A DNA stretch of 64,000 nt, taken from the NCBI GenBank assembly GCA_964597575.1, contig CAZQXB010000001.1, positions 338,111-402,110 of the forward strand, in the 5' to 3' direction. The DNA comes from an uncultured Gammaproteobacteria bacterium (lineage in GTDB: Bacteria > Patescibacteriota > Patescibacteriia > Magasanikbacterales > UBA922). Of the stretch, positions 2,442 to 52,179 are shown one piece after another. Made by a program: the position numbers and the translations under genes. The stretch's first letter is position 1. Every line of letters begins with the position of its first letter. The notes below the pieces were generated by a model that was not told the origin of the DNA, did no database searches, and was given only the letters and a program-made list of their open reading frames with translations.

Positions 2442-3527
2442 CTATGACCGTATATAGTTCATGTTTCCGAGGTTTCGTACCAGTCCGCGAATTTCAAGTA
2501 AGGTAAGGGTTGCGCTCATGGCCATAGCCCCAAGCTCAGTTTTGACCCCGATTTCATCGACATGCATGGGTTCAAGGGAAAGAGCTTGGAGAATGCGAGC
2601 CTCTCCCTCGGAGAGGTCGGCATGGGTTGATTCCGCGGCTTTTTTAGTGAGCATGGGGATTCCAAGTGCTGTGGCAACGTCTGTGGCGTCCGTAACGAGC
2701 CAGGCCCCAAGCTTAAGGAGGTTATTAACCCCGCTTGCCGAAGGGGAGGTGATGTTTTGGGGGACTGCAAATACGTCGCGGCTATATTCAAGTGCTAGGG
2801 CCGCAGTAATAAGTGAGCCTGATTTTATACCGGCTTCTATTACAACTGTTCCAAGCGTCATCCCAGCCACCAGGCGATTTCTTTCTGGAAACATGTATGG
2901 TGCCGCTTCTTTGGTGGGGGGGTATTCAGAAATAACCGCTCCTCCATGCTCTATAATACTGTCTGCGAGCCGTACATGGGCTCGAGGGTAGACTGTTGAA
3001 CGAGCAATGCCAGAGCCGAGAACCGCAATAGTTTTCCCGCCAGCACGAATGGCACTTTCATGTGCCACCCCATCAATGCCGAGTGCGAGACCAGAAACAA
3101 TCGCCATGCCGGCACGAGCCAGATCAGCCGAGAGCATCTGGGTAACTTGTTTGCCGTAAGCGCTCGCGTTTCTTGGGCCGACAATAGCAATCGGGTGTTT
3201 GAGGGGTGCCAGATTTCCTCGTACAAAAAGAACAAGTGGGGGGTCTGCTATGTGGCGAAGCAAAGGGGGGAACGATTCGTCGGTTTGGGTGATTGGCTTA
3301 ATGCCTTCGCGCTGCAATTCTTCTTCAATTTGGTCTGGTACGACCTCTGTCCGCCAACGAAGGAAGGCGGTCAGGGTTTCTTCTGGCCAGCGTAAAGAAC
3401 GTAAATCTGAAGCACTGACATCAAATGCTTGGGCAATACTTCCGCATAAACGACTCAGGTCACGTGCGCGTTTGCGGGTGAAGCCAGGGAAAAAACTGAA
3501 AAGTACCTCCTTTTGCATAGAACTCAA
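2442..3527 (-). CDS. dprA: DNA processing protein DprA/Smf
   Basis: The 361-aa ORF has a Rossmann-like DprA core (IAIVGPRNASAYGKQ…VSGLALGIDGVAHESAIRAGGKTIAVLGSGI…AVISEYPPT…PERNRLVAG) and lies directly upstream of topA. Confidence 0.85.
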   Translation of the reverse strand: MSSMQKEVLFSFFPGFTRKRARDLSRLCGSIAQAFDVSASDLRSLRWPEETLTAFLRWRTEVVPDQIEEELQREGIKPITQTDESFPPLLRHIADPPLVLFVRGNLAPLKHPIAIVGPRNASAYGKQVTQMLSADLARAGMAIVSGLALGIDGVAHESAIRAGGKTIAVLGSGIARSTVYPRAHVRLADSIIEHGGAVISEYPPTKEAAPYMFPERNRLVAGMTLGTVVIEAGIKSGSLITAALALEYSRDVFAVPQNITSPSASGVNNLLKLGAWLVTDATDVATALGIPMLTKKAAESTHADLSEGEARILQALSLEPMHVDEIGVKTELGAMAMSATLTLLEIRGLVRNLGNMNYIRS

Positions 3528-33974: not shown

Positions 33975-34049
33975 TGGTAGCGCCAAGGGGAGTCGAACCC
34001 CTCTTCTTAGGTTGAAAACCTAATGTCCTAACCGATAGACGATGGCGCC
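33975..34049 (-). tRNA. tRNA-Glu (anticodon UUC), CCA encoded
   Basis: Minus strand: GGCGCCA-TC-GTCT…GGAC-A-TTAGG-TTTTCAA-CCTAA-…AGGGG-TTCGACT-CCCCT-TGGCGCT-A-CCA. Confidence 0.8.
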
Positions 34050-34111
34050 AGATGAAAAAGTGCTCATACTATAATTGATTTTTTTCACTTCGTCAATATG
34101 CCCTAGGTTCC

Positions 34112-34140
34112 CTTGTGAGTATTGACAAGTGTGCTCAAAA
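34112..34140 (+). promoter_or_regulatory. putative sigma-70-type promoter upstream of the GC-rich gene
   Basis: TTGACA, 17 nt, then TAGTGT (weak −10). The gene has an AAGGAG RBS 8 nt before the ATG, flanked by two copies of GATTGTCAC. Confidence 0.3.
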
Positions 34141-34268
34141 GTGGTAGTGTACAGGTTACTTGGTAAGTGAGGGAGTTTTAGCTCAACAGAGCAAAAATTC
34201 CAAGAAAAACACCCAAAAGGTTCACGAAAGTGGACCTGTGACTGATTGTCACGAAGGAGATTGTCACC

Positions 34269-35195
34269 ATGGTTCGTTCCATCATCAGCGCGCTCGTCGC
34301 GGTCGTTCTCTGCCTCTTCACGAGCGCCCCGGCCTTCGGGCTGGCGCTCGGCATGGTCGGTGACGAGCAGAAGCTCGACATCCCCGTGTCCGCGTTCAAC
34401 GGCAACGTCGATTCCCGCGCCAGCATCATGGTGCAGGACACCTCTCGGCCTCTCGACACCTCGGCGATCAGCGCCATGCAGGTCCAGTGGGATCGGGCGG
34501 AGCGCCGTTCTCACGTCCACGCCAAGCGAGGTACTCGTCCCTTCAGGTGCCCGCAGTACTACACGAATCGTGATCTGGCCGAGACGATGGCGTTCACGGA
34601 GCGCCGTCTCTCAGACTCGTCTGTCACGGACGATGCTCGGCCCACGCTCTACGGCATGCGCTATGCCGGAACGTTCTGTTCGCTCGGCAAGCCTGCCAAG
34701 CGTATGAACAAGTCGGATCCGACGCCCGCTGCGGACGAGATCGCTCTCATGATCCCTGTCACGAAGCCGGCACCCCTCAGCCCTCCGAAGACCGGCGGCA
34801 TGCGCCTCGATCCCAACGGCGACACCAACTCGGATTTGACCGATAGCGACTATCTCCGTACGTTCGGTGTCTCGATGAACCTCGTCGCACCGAGTCCGAT
34901 CCAGGAGGTCGTCGGCTCGCGTCAGCTCATGGGCACGGACGAGAATGATCCGTCCTGCGCTACCCTCGAGATCCTCTTGGGCCGTGATCACCACCCTCTC
35001 GGTGTGGTCCCGACCCCCGTCTCTTCTCGTTCGTCCGGCGATCGCGTCTCCCTCTTGTCGAATCTCGACCCGGAAAATGCTGGTGCACATGTCTCGCCAA
35101 AGGAGCTCGCCCGACTGATCGGCTTCCGCGCCGCCACATACAAGGAATCGAGCGGCAACTATAGTTATCACTGGTCACCTGGTCCGCCGCGCTAA
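34269..35195 (+). CDS. secreted hypothetical protein encoded in a high-GC island (probable horizontally acquired gene)
   Basis: The 308-aa ORF has an N-terminal signal peptide (MVRSIISALVAVVLCLFTSAPAFG). GC is about 65–70 % with GC-rich third codon positions, against about 45 % in flanking genes. Overlapping ORFs on both strands are stop-free artefacts of the GC-rich DNA. Confidence 0.6.
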   Translation: MVRSIISALVAVVLCLFTSAPAFGLALGMVGDEQKLDIPVSAFNGNVDSRASIMVQDTSRPLDTSAISAMQVQWDRAERRSHVHAKRGTRPFRCPQYYTNRDLAETMAFTERRLSDSSVTDDARPTLYGMRYAGTFCSLGKPAKRMNKSDPTPAADEIALMIPVTKPAPLSPPKTGGMRLDPNGDTNSDLTDSDYLRTFGVSMNLVAPSPIQEVVGSRQLMGTDENDPSCATLEILLGRDHHPLGVVPTPVSSRSSGDRVSLLSNLDPENAGAHVSPKELARLIGFRAATYKESSGNYSYHWSPGPPR

Positions 35196-35296
35196 CCCAA
35201 GCCCGCCACCACGTGAAGGGGAGCCGAACGACGATCTTTATCGTTGTTCGGCCCGCATTATCTCTTGTGGAGTATTCTACTGAAGATAAAGCGGAC

Positions 35297-35324
35297 TTGA
35301 CAGAATAATGTATTCTGGTACACT
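35297..35324 (+). promoter_or_regulatory. putative promoter of the rplJL operon; the long structured L10 leader follows to about 35469
   Basis: TTGACA, 16–17 nt, then TACACT. The leader contains the hairpin CTTCCTTTCGGGGAAGAAG. Confidence 0.35.
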
Positions 35325-35469: not shown

Positions 35470-35994
35470 ATGGCTAAAACCAGGCAACAAAAAGAAGAAG
35501 CGCTGAATGTGCTTCAAACCAATCTAAAGAGTGCGAAAGCAACCGTGTTTGCGAATTTTCAAGGGCTCAAAGTAAAAGAGTCTGAAGAACTTCGTGCAAT
35601 CTGCCGCAAAGAACGTATCGTTTACGTGGCAAGCAAAAAAACACTTATCGCTCGCGCGCTTAAAGATGCTGGGTTTGATACGGATGCAGATGCTTTTTCT
35701 GGTGGTGTCGCAGCAGTATTTGCACAAGGTGATGAAGTTGGCGCAGCCAAAGTTATTGCTGATTTTGCAAAGACTCATGAAGTGGTTACCATCTTTGGTG
35801 GAATTTTAGAAGGAAAGTTTATTGACGCAAATAGCGTAAAGGCGCTCGCAAAATTACCAACACGGCAGCAGCTTTTGGGTCAATTGGTCGGTACATTGAA
35901 CGCTCCAGTATCTGGATTCGTCAATGTGTTGGCTGGCAACTTACGCGGTCTTGTTACGGTACTTAATGCCGTGAAAGATAAACAAGCAGCGTAA
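35470..35994 (+). CDS. rplJ: 50S ribosomal protein L10
   Basis: MAKTRQQKEEALNVLQTNLKSAKATVFANFQGLKVKESEELR… The start was moved to residue 38 of the track ORF. Confidence 0.9.
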   Translation: MAKTRQQKEEALNVLQTNLKSAKATVFANFQGLKVKESEELRAICRKERIVYVASKKTLIARALKDAGFDTDADAFSGGVAAVFAQGDEVGAAKVIADFAKTHEVVTIFGGILEGKFIDANSVKALAKLPTRQQLLGQLVGTLNAPVSGFVNVLAGNLRGLVTVLNAVKDKQAA

Positions 35995-36033: not shown

Positions 36034-36444
36034 ATGTCAGAAGAAAAGAAAGTTGTTGAAGTACCAGCGAAATTTCAATCGCTCGTAGATTCAATCGAAA
36101 AAATGTCAGTTCTTGATCTTTCAGAACTCGTAAAAGTTCTTGAAGATAAATTCGGCGTTTCAGCTGCAGCTCCCGCAATGATGATGGCAGCTCCAGCAGC
36201 TGGTGGTGCAGGTGCGGCCGCAGCGGAAGAAAAATCTGAGTTTGCTGTTGAGCTTACTGACGCCGGTGCAAACAAAATTGGCGTAATTAAAGTGGTGAAG
36301 GAATTGACCGGTCTTGGTCTTGCTGAAGCAAAAGGCTTGGTAGATGCAGCACCAAAAGTTCTTAAAGAAGGCGTAAAGAAAGAAGACGCTGAAGCCATGA
36401 AGAAAAAGATCGAAGAGGCTGGCGGAAAAGTAACATTGAAATAG
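36034..36444 (+). CDS. rplL: 50S ribosomal protein L7/L12
   Basis: N-terminal dimerisation region, Ala-rich hinge and C-terminal domain (…[23 protein letters not shown]…). Confidence 0.9.
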
Positions 36445-36515: not shown

Positions 36516-38594
36516 TTAGAAGCTGAACATCGACACGGTGTTATTTTCGAGAACATAAATTGTTCTCTTTGTCTCGTCAACAACCATGCCGGTTGGTTCC
36601 TTCCACGCATCGGCCACGTATTGTGCTTTCATAACCCCATTCTTATCAAGAACGACCACTCGTGCATTTTTTGTATCGAGGACGTAGATATTGCTCAGGT
36701 CCGTATAGGTCCAAATCAATCCACTGCCTGATAAAACAGGGTCGACATCTTGAAGAGAAAAGGCCTGTTCGATTCCGGCAGAAAATTTCCTTATTTTTCC
36801 GGTAGTCTCCATGATAAAAATATCTCCGTCAATCGTAAACGAGTTTGCGTTCGTCAATGGCTCATTCAACTGTTTTACCCAAGTTGTCCCTTTGTCATAG
36901 CCGGCCTGAGTTTTGTTGTGTCGATATATTTGGTTCGTTTCAGTATCAAGTGCGTATAGACGTTGATTATATACCGCCACGTCAACTAAACTTTTTTCTG
37001 GCGCACCGCTCGCAATTTCCACAAGCGCGACAGTACCACTTTCTTTATCGTAATTGGCGAGTCGGTTATTTTCCGCGATAAAGAGAATATTTTCTCCTTC
37101 TTTTGGTACGTAGTGTTTTTTGAGTCCCTTTACAACGCCAATATCCTTTCTTGTGATGGCCTTACTGCTCATGTCAACCATATGCAGGGCAGTGTCGTTT
37201 GGCCCGTAAGCAATGAGTGTGTTTTGAAGCCGGGCCAGAAGAGTTACGTTCGTTTCTGGTCGATCAGTAGTAAGTTTTGCCACAAGTGTTGGAGAGACTT
37301 TGGTCACGTTTCGTAACCGTTCACGCTGTGCAGCCACCCGTTCCAAAAGTTCTGTTCGTTTTGCTTTCTTCTCTCCTGGATCGTCGGGTAAGTTTTGGGC
37401 CATGGTGTCGGCCTCCCCAATGAGCGCAAGTGCTTTGGCTTTATCATTATAAATCGCACTTGCTTCTGCTGCGGTTATTTTGTCGGTAATTGCCTGAACC
37501 GTATCAAGATACGTTTGTGCCACTTGTTCTCGTTCGGCTCGAATGCGATTCACGAAAACAGTCCCTGCAAAGATTGCCAGCAAAAGAATCATGACAATCG
37601 CTAAAATTTTGGTGGTGATAGGGAGGTTGAGAAGATATTGCCTTTTTTCTTCAACGGTATGCGACATGCTTTCAAGGACACTTTCGCGTTGTCCGCCCCA
37701 ATTGGTAATGATAAGAACCCCGCCAAAGAGTAGCTTTCCTGTACCGATAAGGAGCCCCTTGATAAGTTTGGCGAATCCGACCACGATTCTGGCCATGGCG
37801 ACACCAAAACCAGAAAGAATATCTCCGCGAGGTGGTACATCCCGTGTCCGTTTTTGAGGACGAGACATCATTTCCACTTCTTCTGGCTCTTCAATGCCAT
37901 CATCTGTGACAGGAGCTCCCACTCCTTTATTCCCAAGTGTTTCCTCCATTTGTAAAAGAACCCCGCCAAACCCAAGACCGCTGTCCATGTTCTCGAGTGT
38001 TTCTTGGATATTTGCGGCTGCCACTCTCGGTGGTTTTTTTGCAAGCATTTTTTTCATGCGTTCTGGCGGAATATAGTCTGCGGTTCGAGGAGTGACAGCG
38101 TAGAGTATGTCGCCCTTTCCTACCTCGCCTTGCATGATGGCTGGAAAAAGTTGTGTGCCACTCGTGTCAGCGTCGCCAAGAGTGATGTCTTCGAGCTCAT
38201 CATTTTTGCTGTAAAGAAGATGGATGGCGTGTTCTCCGTGGGTGGCAAAAAGAAGGGACTGCCCTGAAATGGCGCCAACAACAATCGAGAGGCGGACTTT
38301 ACGATCGAGAATAAGGTGGTGGCTACGGCGATTGACATATTCAACCGCAAGTTCAAAAGGATGTTTCTCGCCATCGGTTGGAAGAGTGTAATATTGTTTC
38401 TCAAGAGTAGAGATAAGTTCCTGGCATGCTTCAATTGTTTCGGTGGTGCCGTGATCCACTTCAATCACGGCAAAAAAGTAACCATGAGCAAGTTCACGAG
38501 CGGTTGAGGGTTCACTTACGTGAAGAAGAACGTGCAAACGCTCAGAGTCGTTTCCTGATACGAAAAATTCATGAAGGTCAATTCGAGGTGGCAT
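36516..38594 (-). CDS. membrane protein with an N-terminal PP2C/SpoIIE-like phosphatase-like domain and a C-terminal extracytoplasmic domain
   Basis: The N-terminal roughly 250 aa resemble PPM-type phosphatases (FFAVIEVDHG…SIVVGAISGQSLLFATHGEHAIHLLYS…DILYAVTPRT). A TM helix (ILAIVMILLLAIFAGTVFV) is followed by a C-terminal region of about 350 aa that is probably beta-rich. Confidence 0.6.
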   Translation of the reverse strand: MPPRIDLHEFFVSGNDSERLHVLLHVSEPSTARELAHGYFFAVIEVDHGTTETIEACQELISTLEKQYYTLPTDGEKHPFELAVEYVNRRSHHLILDRKVRLSIVVGAISGQSLLFATHGEHAIHLLYSKNDELEDITLGDADTSGTQLFPAIMQGEVGKGDILYAVTPRTADYIPPERMKKMLAKKPPRVAAANIQETLENMDSGLGFGGVLLQMEETLGNKGVGAPVTDDGIEEPEEVEMMSRPQKRTRDVPPRGDILSGFGVAMARIVVGFAKLIKGLLIGTGKLLFGGVLIITNWGGQRESVLESMSHTVEEKRQYLLNLPITTKILAIVMILLLAIFAGTVFVNRIRAEREQVAQTYLDTVQAITDKITAAEASAIYNDKAKALALIGEADTMAQNLPDDPGEKKAKRTELLERVAAQRERLRNVTKVSPTLVAKLTTDRPETNVTLLARLQNTLIAYGPNDTALHMVDMSSKAITRKDIGVVKGLKKHYVPKEGENILFIAENNRLANYDKESGTVALVEIASGAPEKSLVDVAVYNQRLYALDTETNQIYRHNKTQAGYDKGTTWVKQLNEPLTNANSFTIDGDIFIMETTGKIRKFSAGIEQAFSLQDVDPVLSGSGLIWTYTDLSNIYVLDTKNARVVVLDKNGVMKAQYVADAWKEPTGMVVDETKRTIYVLENNTVSMFSF

Positions 38595-51030: not shown

Positions 51031-51073
51031 TTTGCCGGGTTACAGATGTGACCCAGAAAAGAGATACCTGAAA

Positions 51074-52075
51074 GTGATAACCGCAGTTTGGCGGCTCCTC
51101 GGAGCCGCAATATTCTTCTTCGTTGTGGCACTCTCTGCGTGCGGCAACGACCCCGTGGATTCGGGGGGGGCGCCGACGACGCCGGCGGTCGAGAGCTTCA
51201 TGAAGAGTCTCTCCGAGGCGTGCCCCGTGGGCAACCTGGAGAGCAAGGCCGAGCGCGACGCGTGCGCGTGGGCTCTCCCTGCTCGGGTGGCCGGGGTGCA
51301 GAACCCGCGGCGCCAGATCGTGTGGGGTGGTCAGAAGGAGGGGGCGGGCCTCCTCCCCTATGACATCGGTCACGTGACCGAGTTCGACAGCGCGCGCGTC
51401 TTCCCGATGCTCTATCTGTCGACGTTCGCGTTCGAGAGCCGCTACACCTGCACCCGGGAGGTCAATCCGAACGACGGCATCGAATACGAGGTCTGCCAAG
51501 TTCCGAGCCGTTTCCGCGAGCTCGATCCAGGCGAGTACGCGTACCCGTTCTGGCACGCACCAGGAAAGATCAAGTCGTACACGCAGGCAAGGAAGATCAT
51601 CTTCTACTTCCAGGCTGGGGTTTGGGTCGCAGCGCTCCGGTCGAACGATCTCGACCCGAACCGTATCGTGACTCCTCGTGAAGATCGTGGGTGGGAGTGG
51701 GAGGAGGATGGGGAGAGGCAGCCTCGGGTGACCAGTTTCACCTACGTGTTCTCGCCAGGGAACGAGTACGTGGCAGAGCTGAACACGGCGTATCAGGCAC
51801 TCGCGCTCGCAGAGCGAGATCGGAACTGCATGAGCTGCCACGAGCCGGACAACAAGGGTGCGATGCCCAAGCTCGAGCTGCTGCGCTATCCGGTTCAGGC
51901 ACTGTCGGGCAGGAAGGATCTGATCCGGATCCTCGAGGACAATACGATGCCCCCTGCCGTTGGCATCGGGGATTCCGAGGCGCTCGACAGGATGAAGGCA
52001 CTCGCGCTCGAGTTCAATCGTGTCGCGGACAAGGCGTACGCCTGGGAAGATGGGGTAGGGAGAGGGGGGGACTGA
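51074..52075 (+). CDS. putative lipoprotein with a CxxCH heme-c-type motif, encoded in a second high-GC island
   Basis: A GTG start is proposed, because the track start lies inside the −10 box. The protein has a lipobox (VVALSAC) and CMSCHEP near the C-terminus. GC is about 65–70 % with a strong GC third-position bias. Confidence 0.55.
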   Translation: MITAVWRLLGAAIFFFVVALSACGNDPVDSGGAPTTPAVESFMKSLSEACPVGNLESKAERDACAWALPARVAGVQNPRRQIVWGGQKEGAGLLPYDIGHVTEFDSARVFPMLYLSTFAFESRYTCTREVNPNDGIEYEVCQVPSRFRELDPGEYAYPFWHAPGKIKSYTQARKIIFYFQAGVWVAALRSNDLDPNRIVTPREDRGWEWEEDGERQPRVTSFTYVFSPGNEYVAELNTAYQALALAERDRNCMSCHEPDNKGAMPKLELLRYPVQALSGRKDLIRILEDNTMPPAVGIGDSEALDRMKALALEFNRVADKAYAWEDGVGRGGD

Positions 52076-52106
52076 GAGTCACGGAGGGGTTCCCCACGAG
52101 GTTCTG

Positions 52107-52152
52107 ATTCTTTCACCGGAGGCATGCACGCGATTTGCGAGCATGCCTCTGT
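52107..52152 (+). terminator. rho-independent terminator after the GC-rich gene
   Basis: GGAGGCATGC-(13-nt loop)-GCATGCCTC followed by TGTTTTCTTTTC. Confidence 0.55.
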
Positions 52153-52179
52153 TTTCTTTTCTTGACACTTTTCCGGTTC
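52151..52179 (+). promoter_or_regulatory. promoter of the glyQS leader
   Basis: TTGACA, 17 nt, then TATACT. Confidence 0.4.

Follow-up and report, generated by a model that had tools for sequence, protein, structure and literature searches.

A GC-rich single-gene islet of probable horizontal origin between tRNA-Glu and rplJ in a sub-lineage of Candidatus Magasanikbacteria

Features of the tRNA-Glu/rplJ junction

In this work, we analyzed a high-GC segment at 34.22-35.25 kb of a 64,000-nt stretch of the metagenomic contig CAZQXB010000001.1 (hereafter the window). The segment, designated island 1, lies between a tRNA-Glu gene and rplJ, and contains one open reading frame (ORF) that encodes a predicted secreted orphan protein of 308 amino acids (aa). 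It is probably a horizontally acquired single gene, i.e., a 'genomic islet', that was inserted at this junction in a small sub-lineage of Candidatus Magasanikbacteria. In another metagenome (GCA_013558375.1), orthologs were found at the same junction on two contigs, namely, JACCDG010750227.1 (L001) and JACCDG011691398.1 (L087, in which the ortholog is partial).

The left landmark of the insertion site is the tRNA-Glu gene (anticodon UUC; 33975..34049, minus strand), which was identified by ARAGORN, matched the Rfam tRNA family with 59.9 bits, and is 97% identical to its counterpart in L001. A promoter scan placed a promoter-like site for this gene (TTGACG-17-TATAGT) at 34096->34068 on the minus strand. 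For the island gene, a putative promoter (34122..34150, plus strand) was read from the sequence and consists of TTGACA, 17 nt, and an extended -10-like element (TGgTAGTGT). This site is AT-rich and native-like, and its TTGACAA and GTGGTAG stretches are kept in L001 and L087. The site was missed by a scan for simple consensus matches, since its -10 hexamer agrees at only three of six positions. Derivation of this promoter from that of rplJ by duplication was rejected since the alignment was unconvincing.

The 5' untranslated region (UTR; 34151..34268, plus strand) has 40% GC and contains a short GTGAC-loop-GTCAC inverted repeat. The arms of this repeat and the ribosome-binding site (RBS) AAGGAG (34254-34259, plus strand; 9 nt upstream of the ATG) are kept in L001 and L087, and the loop differs there (UUCG). 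Because the folding is no better than that of shuffled sequences, a 5' UTR hairpin is not established. The high-GC ORF follows (34269..35195, plus strand; ATG start), recognizable by its GC content at third codon positions (GC3) and by its orthologs. These features agree with an earlier note on the window, which had described the promoter, RBS, and flanks as native-like and AT-rich.

The GC-rich 3' UTR (35196..35259, plus strand) forms the right edge of the high-GC segment and carries a terminal hairpin of 13 bp with a CUUU loop (35223-35235/35240-35252, plus strand; fold -27.4 kcal/mol, z = -4.2). The right arm of this hairpin and the sequence downstream are kept in L001. The earlier note had taken the structure for a terminator. 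The stable hairpin is real, but its role as a terminator is unproven because it lacks a U-tract (CCGCAUUAUCUCUUGU follows instead) and was not called by a terminator scan. Farther downstream, the right landmark is a promoter-like site of rplJ (TTGACA-16-TACACT with TG; 35297-35324, plus strand; promoter scan). The L10 leader (RF00557; 35317-35473, plus strand) scored 40.4 bits, just below the gathering score of 44, and has above-threshold scores in relatives. The genes rplJ (35470-35994) and rplL (36034-36444) are both located on the plus strand.

Base composition and coding status of island 1

An island caller run on the window delimited a segment at 34221-35240 with a GC content of 0.62 on a base of 0.46. 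In steps of 200 nt, the GC content is 0.40-0.47 up to ~34.25 kb, 0.59-0.67 in 34.2-35.2 kb, and 0.40-0.46 from 35.2 kb. The sharp high-GC segment beside tRNA-Glu and the strong GC bias of its third codon positions, both pointed out previously, were thus confirmed. The GC contents of the three codon positions in the 308-aa ORF are 0.61, 0.51, and 0.77, compared to a GC3 of 0.33 in the adjacent rplJ. In a background set of 42 non-overlapping ORFs from the window, GC is 0.465±0.021 and GC3 is 0.415±0.032 (maximum 0.477), such that the island ORF deviates by +7.8 standard deviations (sd) in GC and by +10.9 sd in GC3. Its relative synonymous codon usage correlates with that of GC-rich genomes (r = 0.74-0.82) and not with that of host genes (r = -0.12). 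The high GC content runs ~55 nt beyond the stop codon. The claim that the anomaly is confined to one ORF and its hairpin holds for this locus, but the anomaly is not unique, as a second island of the same composition was found at ~51041-52160.

The 308-aa ORF is a real protein gene. Its only database relative, P0001, is encoded on L001 and aligns over the full length with 52-54% identity. The gene order in L001 is the same as in the window: tRNA-Glu (minus strand), island gene, rplJ, rplL, a minus-strand gene of ~690 aa, a helix-turn-helix (HTH) gene, a TsaD-family (TsaB-like) gene, GT2, DUF4012, MreB, and GT4. The orthologs in L001 and L087 have 54-58% protein identity to the window, and the alignments of the three sequences contain in-frame indels only. 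The predicted signal peptide, the RBS, the 3' hairpin, three cysteines of the mature region, and several motifs are kept, namely, HAKRGTxPFRCPxYY, RYAGTFCSLGKPAKR, PSCxTLE, TPVSSRS, and WxPGPPR. The plus frame has GC3 > GC1 > GC2, which is the order expected for a GC-rich coding sequence. Between the window and L001, substitutions are most frequent at the third codon position (127, compared to 88 and 83 at the others), and pN (0.28) is lower than pS (0.48).

A second high-GC island in the window

Island 2 (~51041-52160, plus strand; ORF 51074-52075) also contains a single gene and has a GC content of 0.63 and a GC3 of 0.78-0.80. It is flanked by frr and by a gene for a class II aminoacyl-tRNA synthetase (Pfam tRNA-synt_2b and HGTP_anticodon). 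The product is a putative lipoprotein of 333 aa with the lipobox LSAC and an invariant, weakly cytochrome-c-like CxxCH...MPP motif. In a structural model, the N-terminal domain is weakly NTF2/SnoaL-like (Foldseek E about 0.01; predicted local distance difference test [pLDDT] 70). Candidate Phyla Radiation (CPR) genomes are expected to lack cytochrome c maturation, and a haem-binding motif would be odd there.

Homologs of the island 2 protein with 37-42% identity were found only in contigs of 62-63% GC (L083 and L084) and 69-77% GC (L088). The genes have native composition in these contigs, and their neighbors include Ser/Thr kinases and, in some cases, an ECF sigma factor and flagellar genes. 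These homologs clearly point to a transfer of island 2 from GC-rich non-CPR bacteria into the window genome.

The two islands share an organization that consists of an AT-rich promoter, an ORF that is GC-rich from the signal peptide on, a GC-rich 3' UTR, and a hairpin. They are also alike in GC and GC3, in codon usage (r = 0.75), and in encoding predicted exported proteins without a Pfam family. The proteins themselves are unrelated (hhalign probability 0.2%), and traceable relatives were found for island 2 only. Island 2, which lies in the same window, sets a precedent that supports a GC-rich source for island 1.

Host lineage and distribution of the island gene

The L10 protein of the window has its best matches, with up to 69% identity, in metagenome-assembled genomes (MAGs) of Candidatus Magasanikbacteria (Patescibacteria/CPR). 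The L10 of L001 is far closer than those of other Magasanikbacteria, with 84% identity to the window. Based on these protein matches, the source organism is a member of Candidatus Magasanikbacteria and not a Saccharibacterium.

A homolog of the island protein is encoded at none of the 80 representative Magasanikbacteria loci, and only the window, L001, and L087 carry the gene among the sequences compared. For spacer comparison, we used the 33 loci (window and L001 included) that have tRNA-Glu located no more than 3.2 kb upstream of rplJ. In 14 of these, the tRNA-Glu/rplJ spacer is 179-398 nt long, which is just room for two promoters and the L10 leader, and these short spacers were accordingly read as the empty site. 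The other loci have inserts of 0.6-3 kb with varied GC content. These inserts are mutually unrelated, as neither blastn nor tblastx found homology among them. An Rfam search of 12 related loci found only tRNA, the L10 leader, and one tmRNA. The absence of the gene from the 80 loci, together with the empty sites, indicates that the island gene was inserted at a variable position in one sub-lineage. The refuting observation named in the earlier note, high-GC orthologs at this locus throughout the lineage, was half borne out: such orthologs are present in the nearest relatives (L001 and L087) and not throughout the lineage.

Horizontal origin of island 1

We consider it probable that the segment at 34.22-35.25 kb is a single gene acquired by horizontal transfer. 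Under this scenario, the gene would have entered the variable region that separates the tRNA-Glu promoter from the rplJ promoter/L10 leader. This may have happened in the ancestor of a small sub-lineage to which the window genome and the source organisms of L001 and L087 belong; alternatively, the gene may have spread among these lineages soon after its arrival. The putative donor would have had ~65-70% GC and would be unsampled in current databases. Because no integrase or att repeats are present, the uptake probably involved transformation and illegitimate recombination. The gene would be transcribed from its native-type promoter and translated from the canonical RBS, and its product would be exported by a Sec signal peptide, while the base composition would be decaying slowly toward that of the host.

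Such a decay is consistent with the differences among orthologs. The GC3 of the island gene is 0.77-0.81 in the window and 0.64-0.70 in L001 and L087. With the window as the outgroup, the polarized changes on the L001/L087 branches comprise 33 strong-to-weak (S>W) and 12 weak-to-strong (W>S) substitutions (binomial p = 0.002), and an equilibrium GC of ~0.37, near that of the host, follows from the per-site rates. The excess of S>W changes indicates that GC is being lost rather than maintained.

The earlier note had proposed a recent acquisition from a high-GC donor, possibly by transfer from an actinobacterial host to its symbiont. A horizontal origin from a GC-rich source is supported as the best explanation, on the indirect evidence of composition, codon usage, and empty sites. 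The age did not: the gene is long resident rather than recent, since orthologs at the same junction are only 54-58% identical in protein. An actinobacterial host as the donor found no support either, as the genome belongs to Magasanikbacteria and the exhaustive search of 1.84 billion cluster representatives (see below) found no homolog outside the sub-lineage. Homology searches for the taxonomy of the donor led to the relative in L001 and to no donor lineage.

Several points weigh against a horizontal origin. First, a donor homolog was not found among the 1.84 billion representatives, such that island 1 lacks a donor signal and the case for foreign origin is made from composition, insertion pattern, and analogy. 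Second, on the 5' side, the GC content shifts right at the start codon, as would also be expected from a constraint on the ORF itself. Third, the use of a GC-rich outgroup for polarization biases the count toward S>W. Fourth, at 4-fold degenerate sites, the neighboring genes of the window and L001 differ at 0.59-0.71, or 80-97% of saturation (except the highly expressed rplL), but the island gene differs at 0.40, or 56% of saturation, and has kept its high GC despite these near-saturated neighbors. This lower divergence would require either later spread between lineages or synonymous constraint. The island alleles may have a more recent common ancestor, through recombination via the conserved tRNA and leader flanks, or their synonymous sites may be constrained. 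Finally, the function ascribed to the protein is purely conjectural, and the AlphaFold2 model (from a 2-sequence alignment) was unusable with a pLDDT of 29.7.

In an alternative explanation, the gene is native to the lineage, possibly de novo or very fast-evolving, and a constraint or process acting on the ORF (e.g., GC-biased gene conversion at a diversifying locus prone to recombination, or mRNA selection) keeps its GC high without any transfer from a GC-rich donor. We regard this explanation as unlikely. In its favor are the lack of a donor homolog in about 15 billion proteins, the 5' boundary at the start codon with native-like flanks, the persistence of high GC in orthologs that are 46% diverged, the synonymous divergence below that of the neighbors, and hints of recombination between alleles, or of mosaicism, among co-occurring strains. 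A gene whose GC is actively maintained is difficult to reconcile with substitutions that run 33:12 toward AT with an equilibrium GC of ~0.37, or with a GC3 that is already 0.1-0.13 apart between orthologs. Its absence from 80 relatives and the existence of empty sites also argue against a native origin, as do the GC-rich stretch that continues ~55 nt past the stop codon and the equally anomalous island 2, 17 kb away, which has GC-rich non-CPR relatives.

Island 1 could also be cargo of a tRNA-targeting mobile element, or a prophage remnant, that integrated site-specifically at tRNA-Glu. This is very unlikely. The island adjoins a tRNA gene, and a 14-nt direct repeat, AAGGGGAG(T/C)CGAAC, occurs in the T-arm of the tRNA (33985-33998) and in the foot of the 3' hairpin (35216-35229). 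The att sites of tRNA-integrating elements are located at the 3' end of the tRNA, but island 1 is located on the 5' (promoter) side of tRNA-Glu. The repeat (13/14 match) is near the chance expectation of about 0.2 and is poorly preserved in L001. As its position relative to the tRNA does not suit an att site and its match in L001 is weak, the repeat is probably a chance occurrence. No integrase or transposase was found among the neighboring products (DnaE, TsaD, L10, L12, the 692-aa protein, HTH, the TsaD-family [TsaB-like] protein, and GT2), and searches of PHROGs and viral contigs had no match. A 21-nt inverted repeat (76%) was also considered and dismissed because it is near chance and not conserved in L001.

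Islands of high GC in AT-richer genomes frequently turn out to be RNA genes, and automated gene calling in the Logan resource placed two minus-strand ORFs of 166 and 186 aa in island 1, which raises the alternative that the segment encodes a structured non-coding RNA or that one of the antisense ORFs is the true gene. This alternative has very little credibility. No Rfam family was found inside the island, and the plus-strand ORF has the codon-position pattern of a coding sequence. It is uninterrupted in all three orthologs, where every indel keeps the frame, and substitutions are more frequent at third positions than at either of the others. The antisense ORFs have no counterpart of at least 110 aa in L001, and the translations of alternative-frame and antisense ORFs have no Pfam domain. 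A database search with two antisense ORFs had no match among the matches listed, which is weak evidence as the Logan-called sequences themselves were also not returned. The antisense ORFs, already dismissed in the earlier note, are hence artifacts. The Logan calls are located at 34020-34520 (166 aa) and 34611-35171 (186 aa), both on the minus strand, and the corresponding antisense calls on L085 are located at 1987-2487 and 2578-3138. The 308-aa protein of the window was not found in the public protein collection by homolog search or exact-sequence look-up, probably because the Logan caller chose the antisense ORFs. This is an annotation trap, in that acquired GC-rich genes in AT-richer genomes can be mis-called systematically.

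A chimeric contig, with a GC-rich fragment joined into a Magasanikbacteria contig by misassembly or contamination, would account for the abrupt composition change in a metagenome-assembled genome, but this is excluded: in the Logan assembly of SRR13355621, a 61.5-kb contig matches the window exactly over 8,411 nt that span both junctions except for one single-nucleotide polymorphism at 37660, three contigs carry the island neighborhood, orthologous islands occur at the same junctions in two contigs of the second metagenome, and the promoter, RBS, and hairpin are kept across contigs.

Comparison with known transferred genes

Individually transferred genes and islands have been documented in Patescibacteria (PMC12455944). 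As in those cases, island 1 would be a single foreign gene with deviant composition in a streamlined CPR genome, transferred not recently and from a donor that is often not recovered. It differs in that no donor can be detected, not even at family level, that the product is a predicted secreted orphan protein rather than a metabolic or restriction-modification protein, and that the insertion site can be defined against the empty sites of relatives.

Under the Lawrence-Ochman model, classical tRNA-adjacent islands and islets have anomalous GC content and codon usage, are patchily distributed, and drift toward the composition of the host. Island 1 similarly has anomalous composition, is located beside a tRNA gene, is patchy, and is drifting hostward. 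Unlike the classical elements, it lacks an integrase and flanking att repeats, is located on the 5' side of the tRNA, and consists of one gene with a native-type promoter. In kind, island 1 is a tRNA-adjacent single-gene islet undergoing amelioration, and the protein family that it encodes is new. Its interest lies in being a clean, bounded single-gene acquisition in a CPR bacterium, with empty sites, ameliorating orthologs, and a traceable second island. The practical value is modest.

Properties and evolution of the predicted protein

The 308-aa protein has a single hydrophobic segment, which is N-terminal (KD15 peaks at 2.64, at residue 4). The N-terminal sequence is composed of MVRS, IISALVAVVLCLFTS, and APAFG|L(A), is kept in the three orthologs, and corresponds to a predicted signal peptide of about residues 1-24. 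The protein is predicted to be exported via this Sec signal peptide, as suggested previously, and an uncleaved signal anchor is the alternative. The mature protein would have ~31 kDa and is rich in Ser, Pro, Asp, and Arg.

Searches of Pfam returned only a sub-threshold hit to DUF6742 (E = 0.2), and no match was found in NCBIfam, PDB sequences, PHROGs, PADLOC, or IMG/VR viral contigs. We built a profile from the two full-length orthologs for an exhaustive hidden Markov model search of 1.84 billion cluster representatives, which returned P0001 and one marginal match (P0002) only. No homolog outside the sub-lineage was found in 5.8 billion clusters either. Within a set of about 15 billion proteins, it is an orphan in terms of detectable homology and represents a new orphan family.

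The marginal match, P0002, is an FG-GAP-like protein with a seven-fold repeat (E = 6e-4). Residues 120-146 of the island protein (DDARPTLYGMRYAGTFCSLGKPAKR) resemble one P0002 unit (DGRADIVGFGYAGTYVSLGTP). In contrast to FG-GAP/VCBS repeat proteins, the island protein contains a single segment of this kind and matches neither FG-GAP nor VCBS in Pfam, and the E-value arises from the sum over the seven repeats of the target. The resemblance may serve as a lead, not as a family assignment.

The island protein evolves fast. The dN/dS of its gene is about 0.5 in all three comparisons, compared to 0.02-0.30 for neighboring genes. Between the window and L001, the protein is 54% identical, and the neighbors are 57-96% identical, except the TsaB-like protein at 41%. 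Another fast-evolving protein beside the ribosomal operon is the 692-aa product of the gene downstream of rplL (36516-38594, minus strand), which has no Pfam domain and is syntenic in L001 with 57% identity.

Variation was also found at the strain level. L001 and L087 differ at 7/365 positions upstream, 70/467 in the N-terminal half of the gene, and 1/62 in the next stretch, and the contrast between the flank and the synonymous sites of the gene is strong (Fisher p = 5.5e-9). This mosaic block (L001 366-832 vs. L087 5001-5470) is 15% different, with flanks that are ~2% different, and looks like a divergent allele or a recombination tract. Both contigs end near the block, as expected from strain-level assembly breaks. 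Mutagenesis of the diversity-generating retroelement type was rejected because the substitution spectrum is general, with all substitution types, mostly transitions in both directions, and no adenine specificity. We also detected no internal repeat of this block.

CPR organisms are thought to live attached to other cells, and fast-evolving exported proteins of attached organisms are obvious candidates for partner recognition. Given the predicted export, the rapid evolution, the strain-level variation, and the presumed CPR lifestyle, our working hypothesis is that the island protein may be a surface-exposed or secreted factor that interacts with other cells or phages.

Other GC-rich inserts and genes near the locus in relatives

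Unrelated ORFs with high GC3 were observed just upstream of rplJ in several relatives. These include two orphan lipoprotein ORFs in L055 (4630-5121 and 5182-5664), a Cys-rich STIG1-like lipoprotein in L060 (4675-5487, minus strand), a cold-shock-domain protein ORF in L046 (5155-5808, minus strand), and an asparaginase ORF in L022 (4446-5525, minus strand). This pattern suggests that the region upstream of rplJ is a recurrent insertion spot. A more far-reaching possibility, which we advance as a speculation and consider unlikely as a whole, is that the tRNA-Glu/rplJ spacer could be a lineage-wide, integrase-independent capture site at which foreign genes, often GC-rich and often for secreted proteins or lipoproteins, come under native promoters. 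The island protein would then be a strain-variable surface factor that sets which partners or hosts these presumed episymbionts associate with, and related lineages would swap its alleles by recombination through the conserved tRNA and L10-leader flanks. The unrelated inserts in many relatives, the synonymous divergence of the island gene at about half that of its neighbors, and the 467-nt mosaic block are compatible with this speculation.

GC-rich stretches of ~450 nt between tRNA-Glu and the L10 leader were found in L002 (5201-5720), L020 (5301-5740), L026 (5181-5640), and L049 (5461-5880). Their GC content is 0.53-0.59, compared to 0.40-0.44, and they have no convincing ORF, Rfam match, or mutual similarity. 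They may be unknown RNAs or decayed inserts.

In several Magasanikbacteria, a PRPP synthetase gene near the locus has a GC3 of 0.64-0.81, which is above that of its own genome. The gene in L041 (3783-4859, minus strand) was confirmed by Pfam, and those in L029 (201-1166, minus strand) and L052 (71-892, minus strand) were assigned by N-terminal sequences only. The elevated GC3 of these genes indicates that high GC3 is not limited to orphan genes in this phylum.

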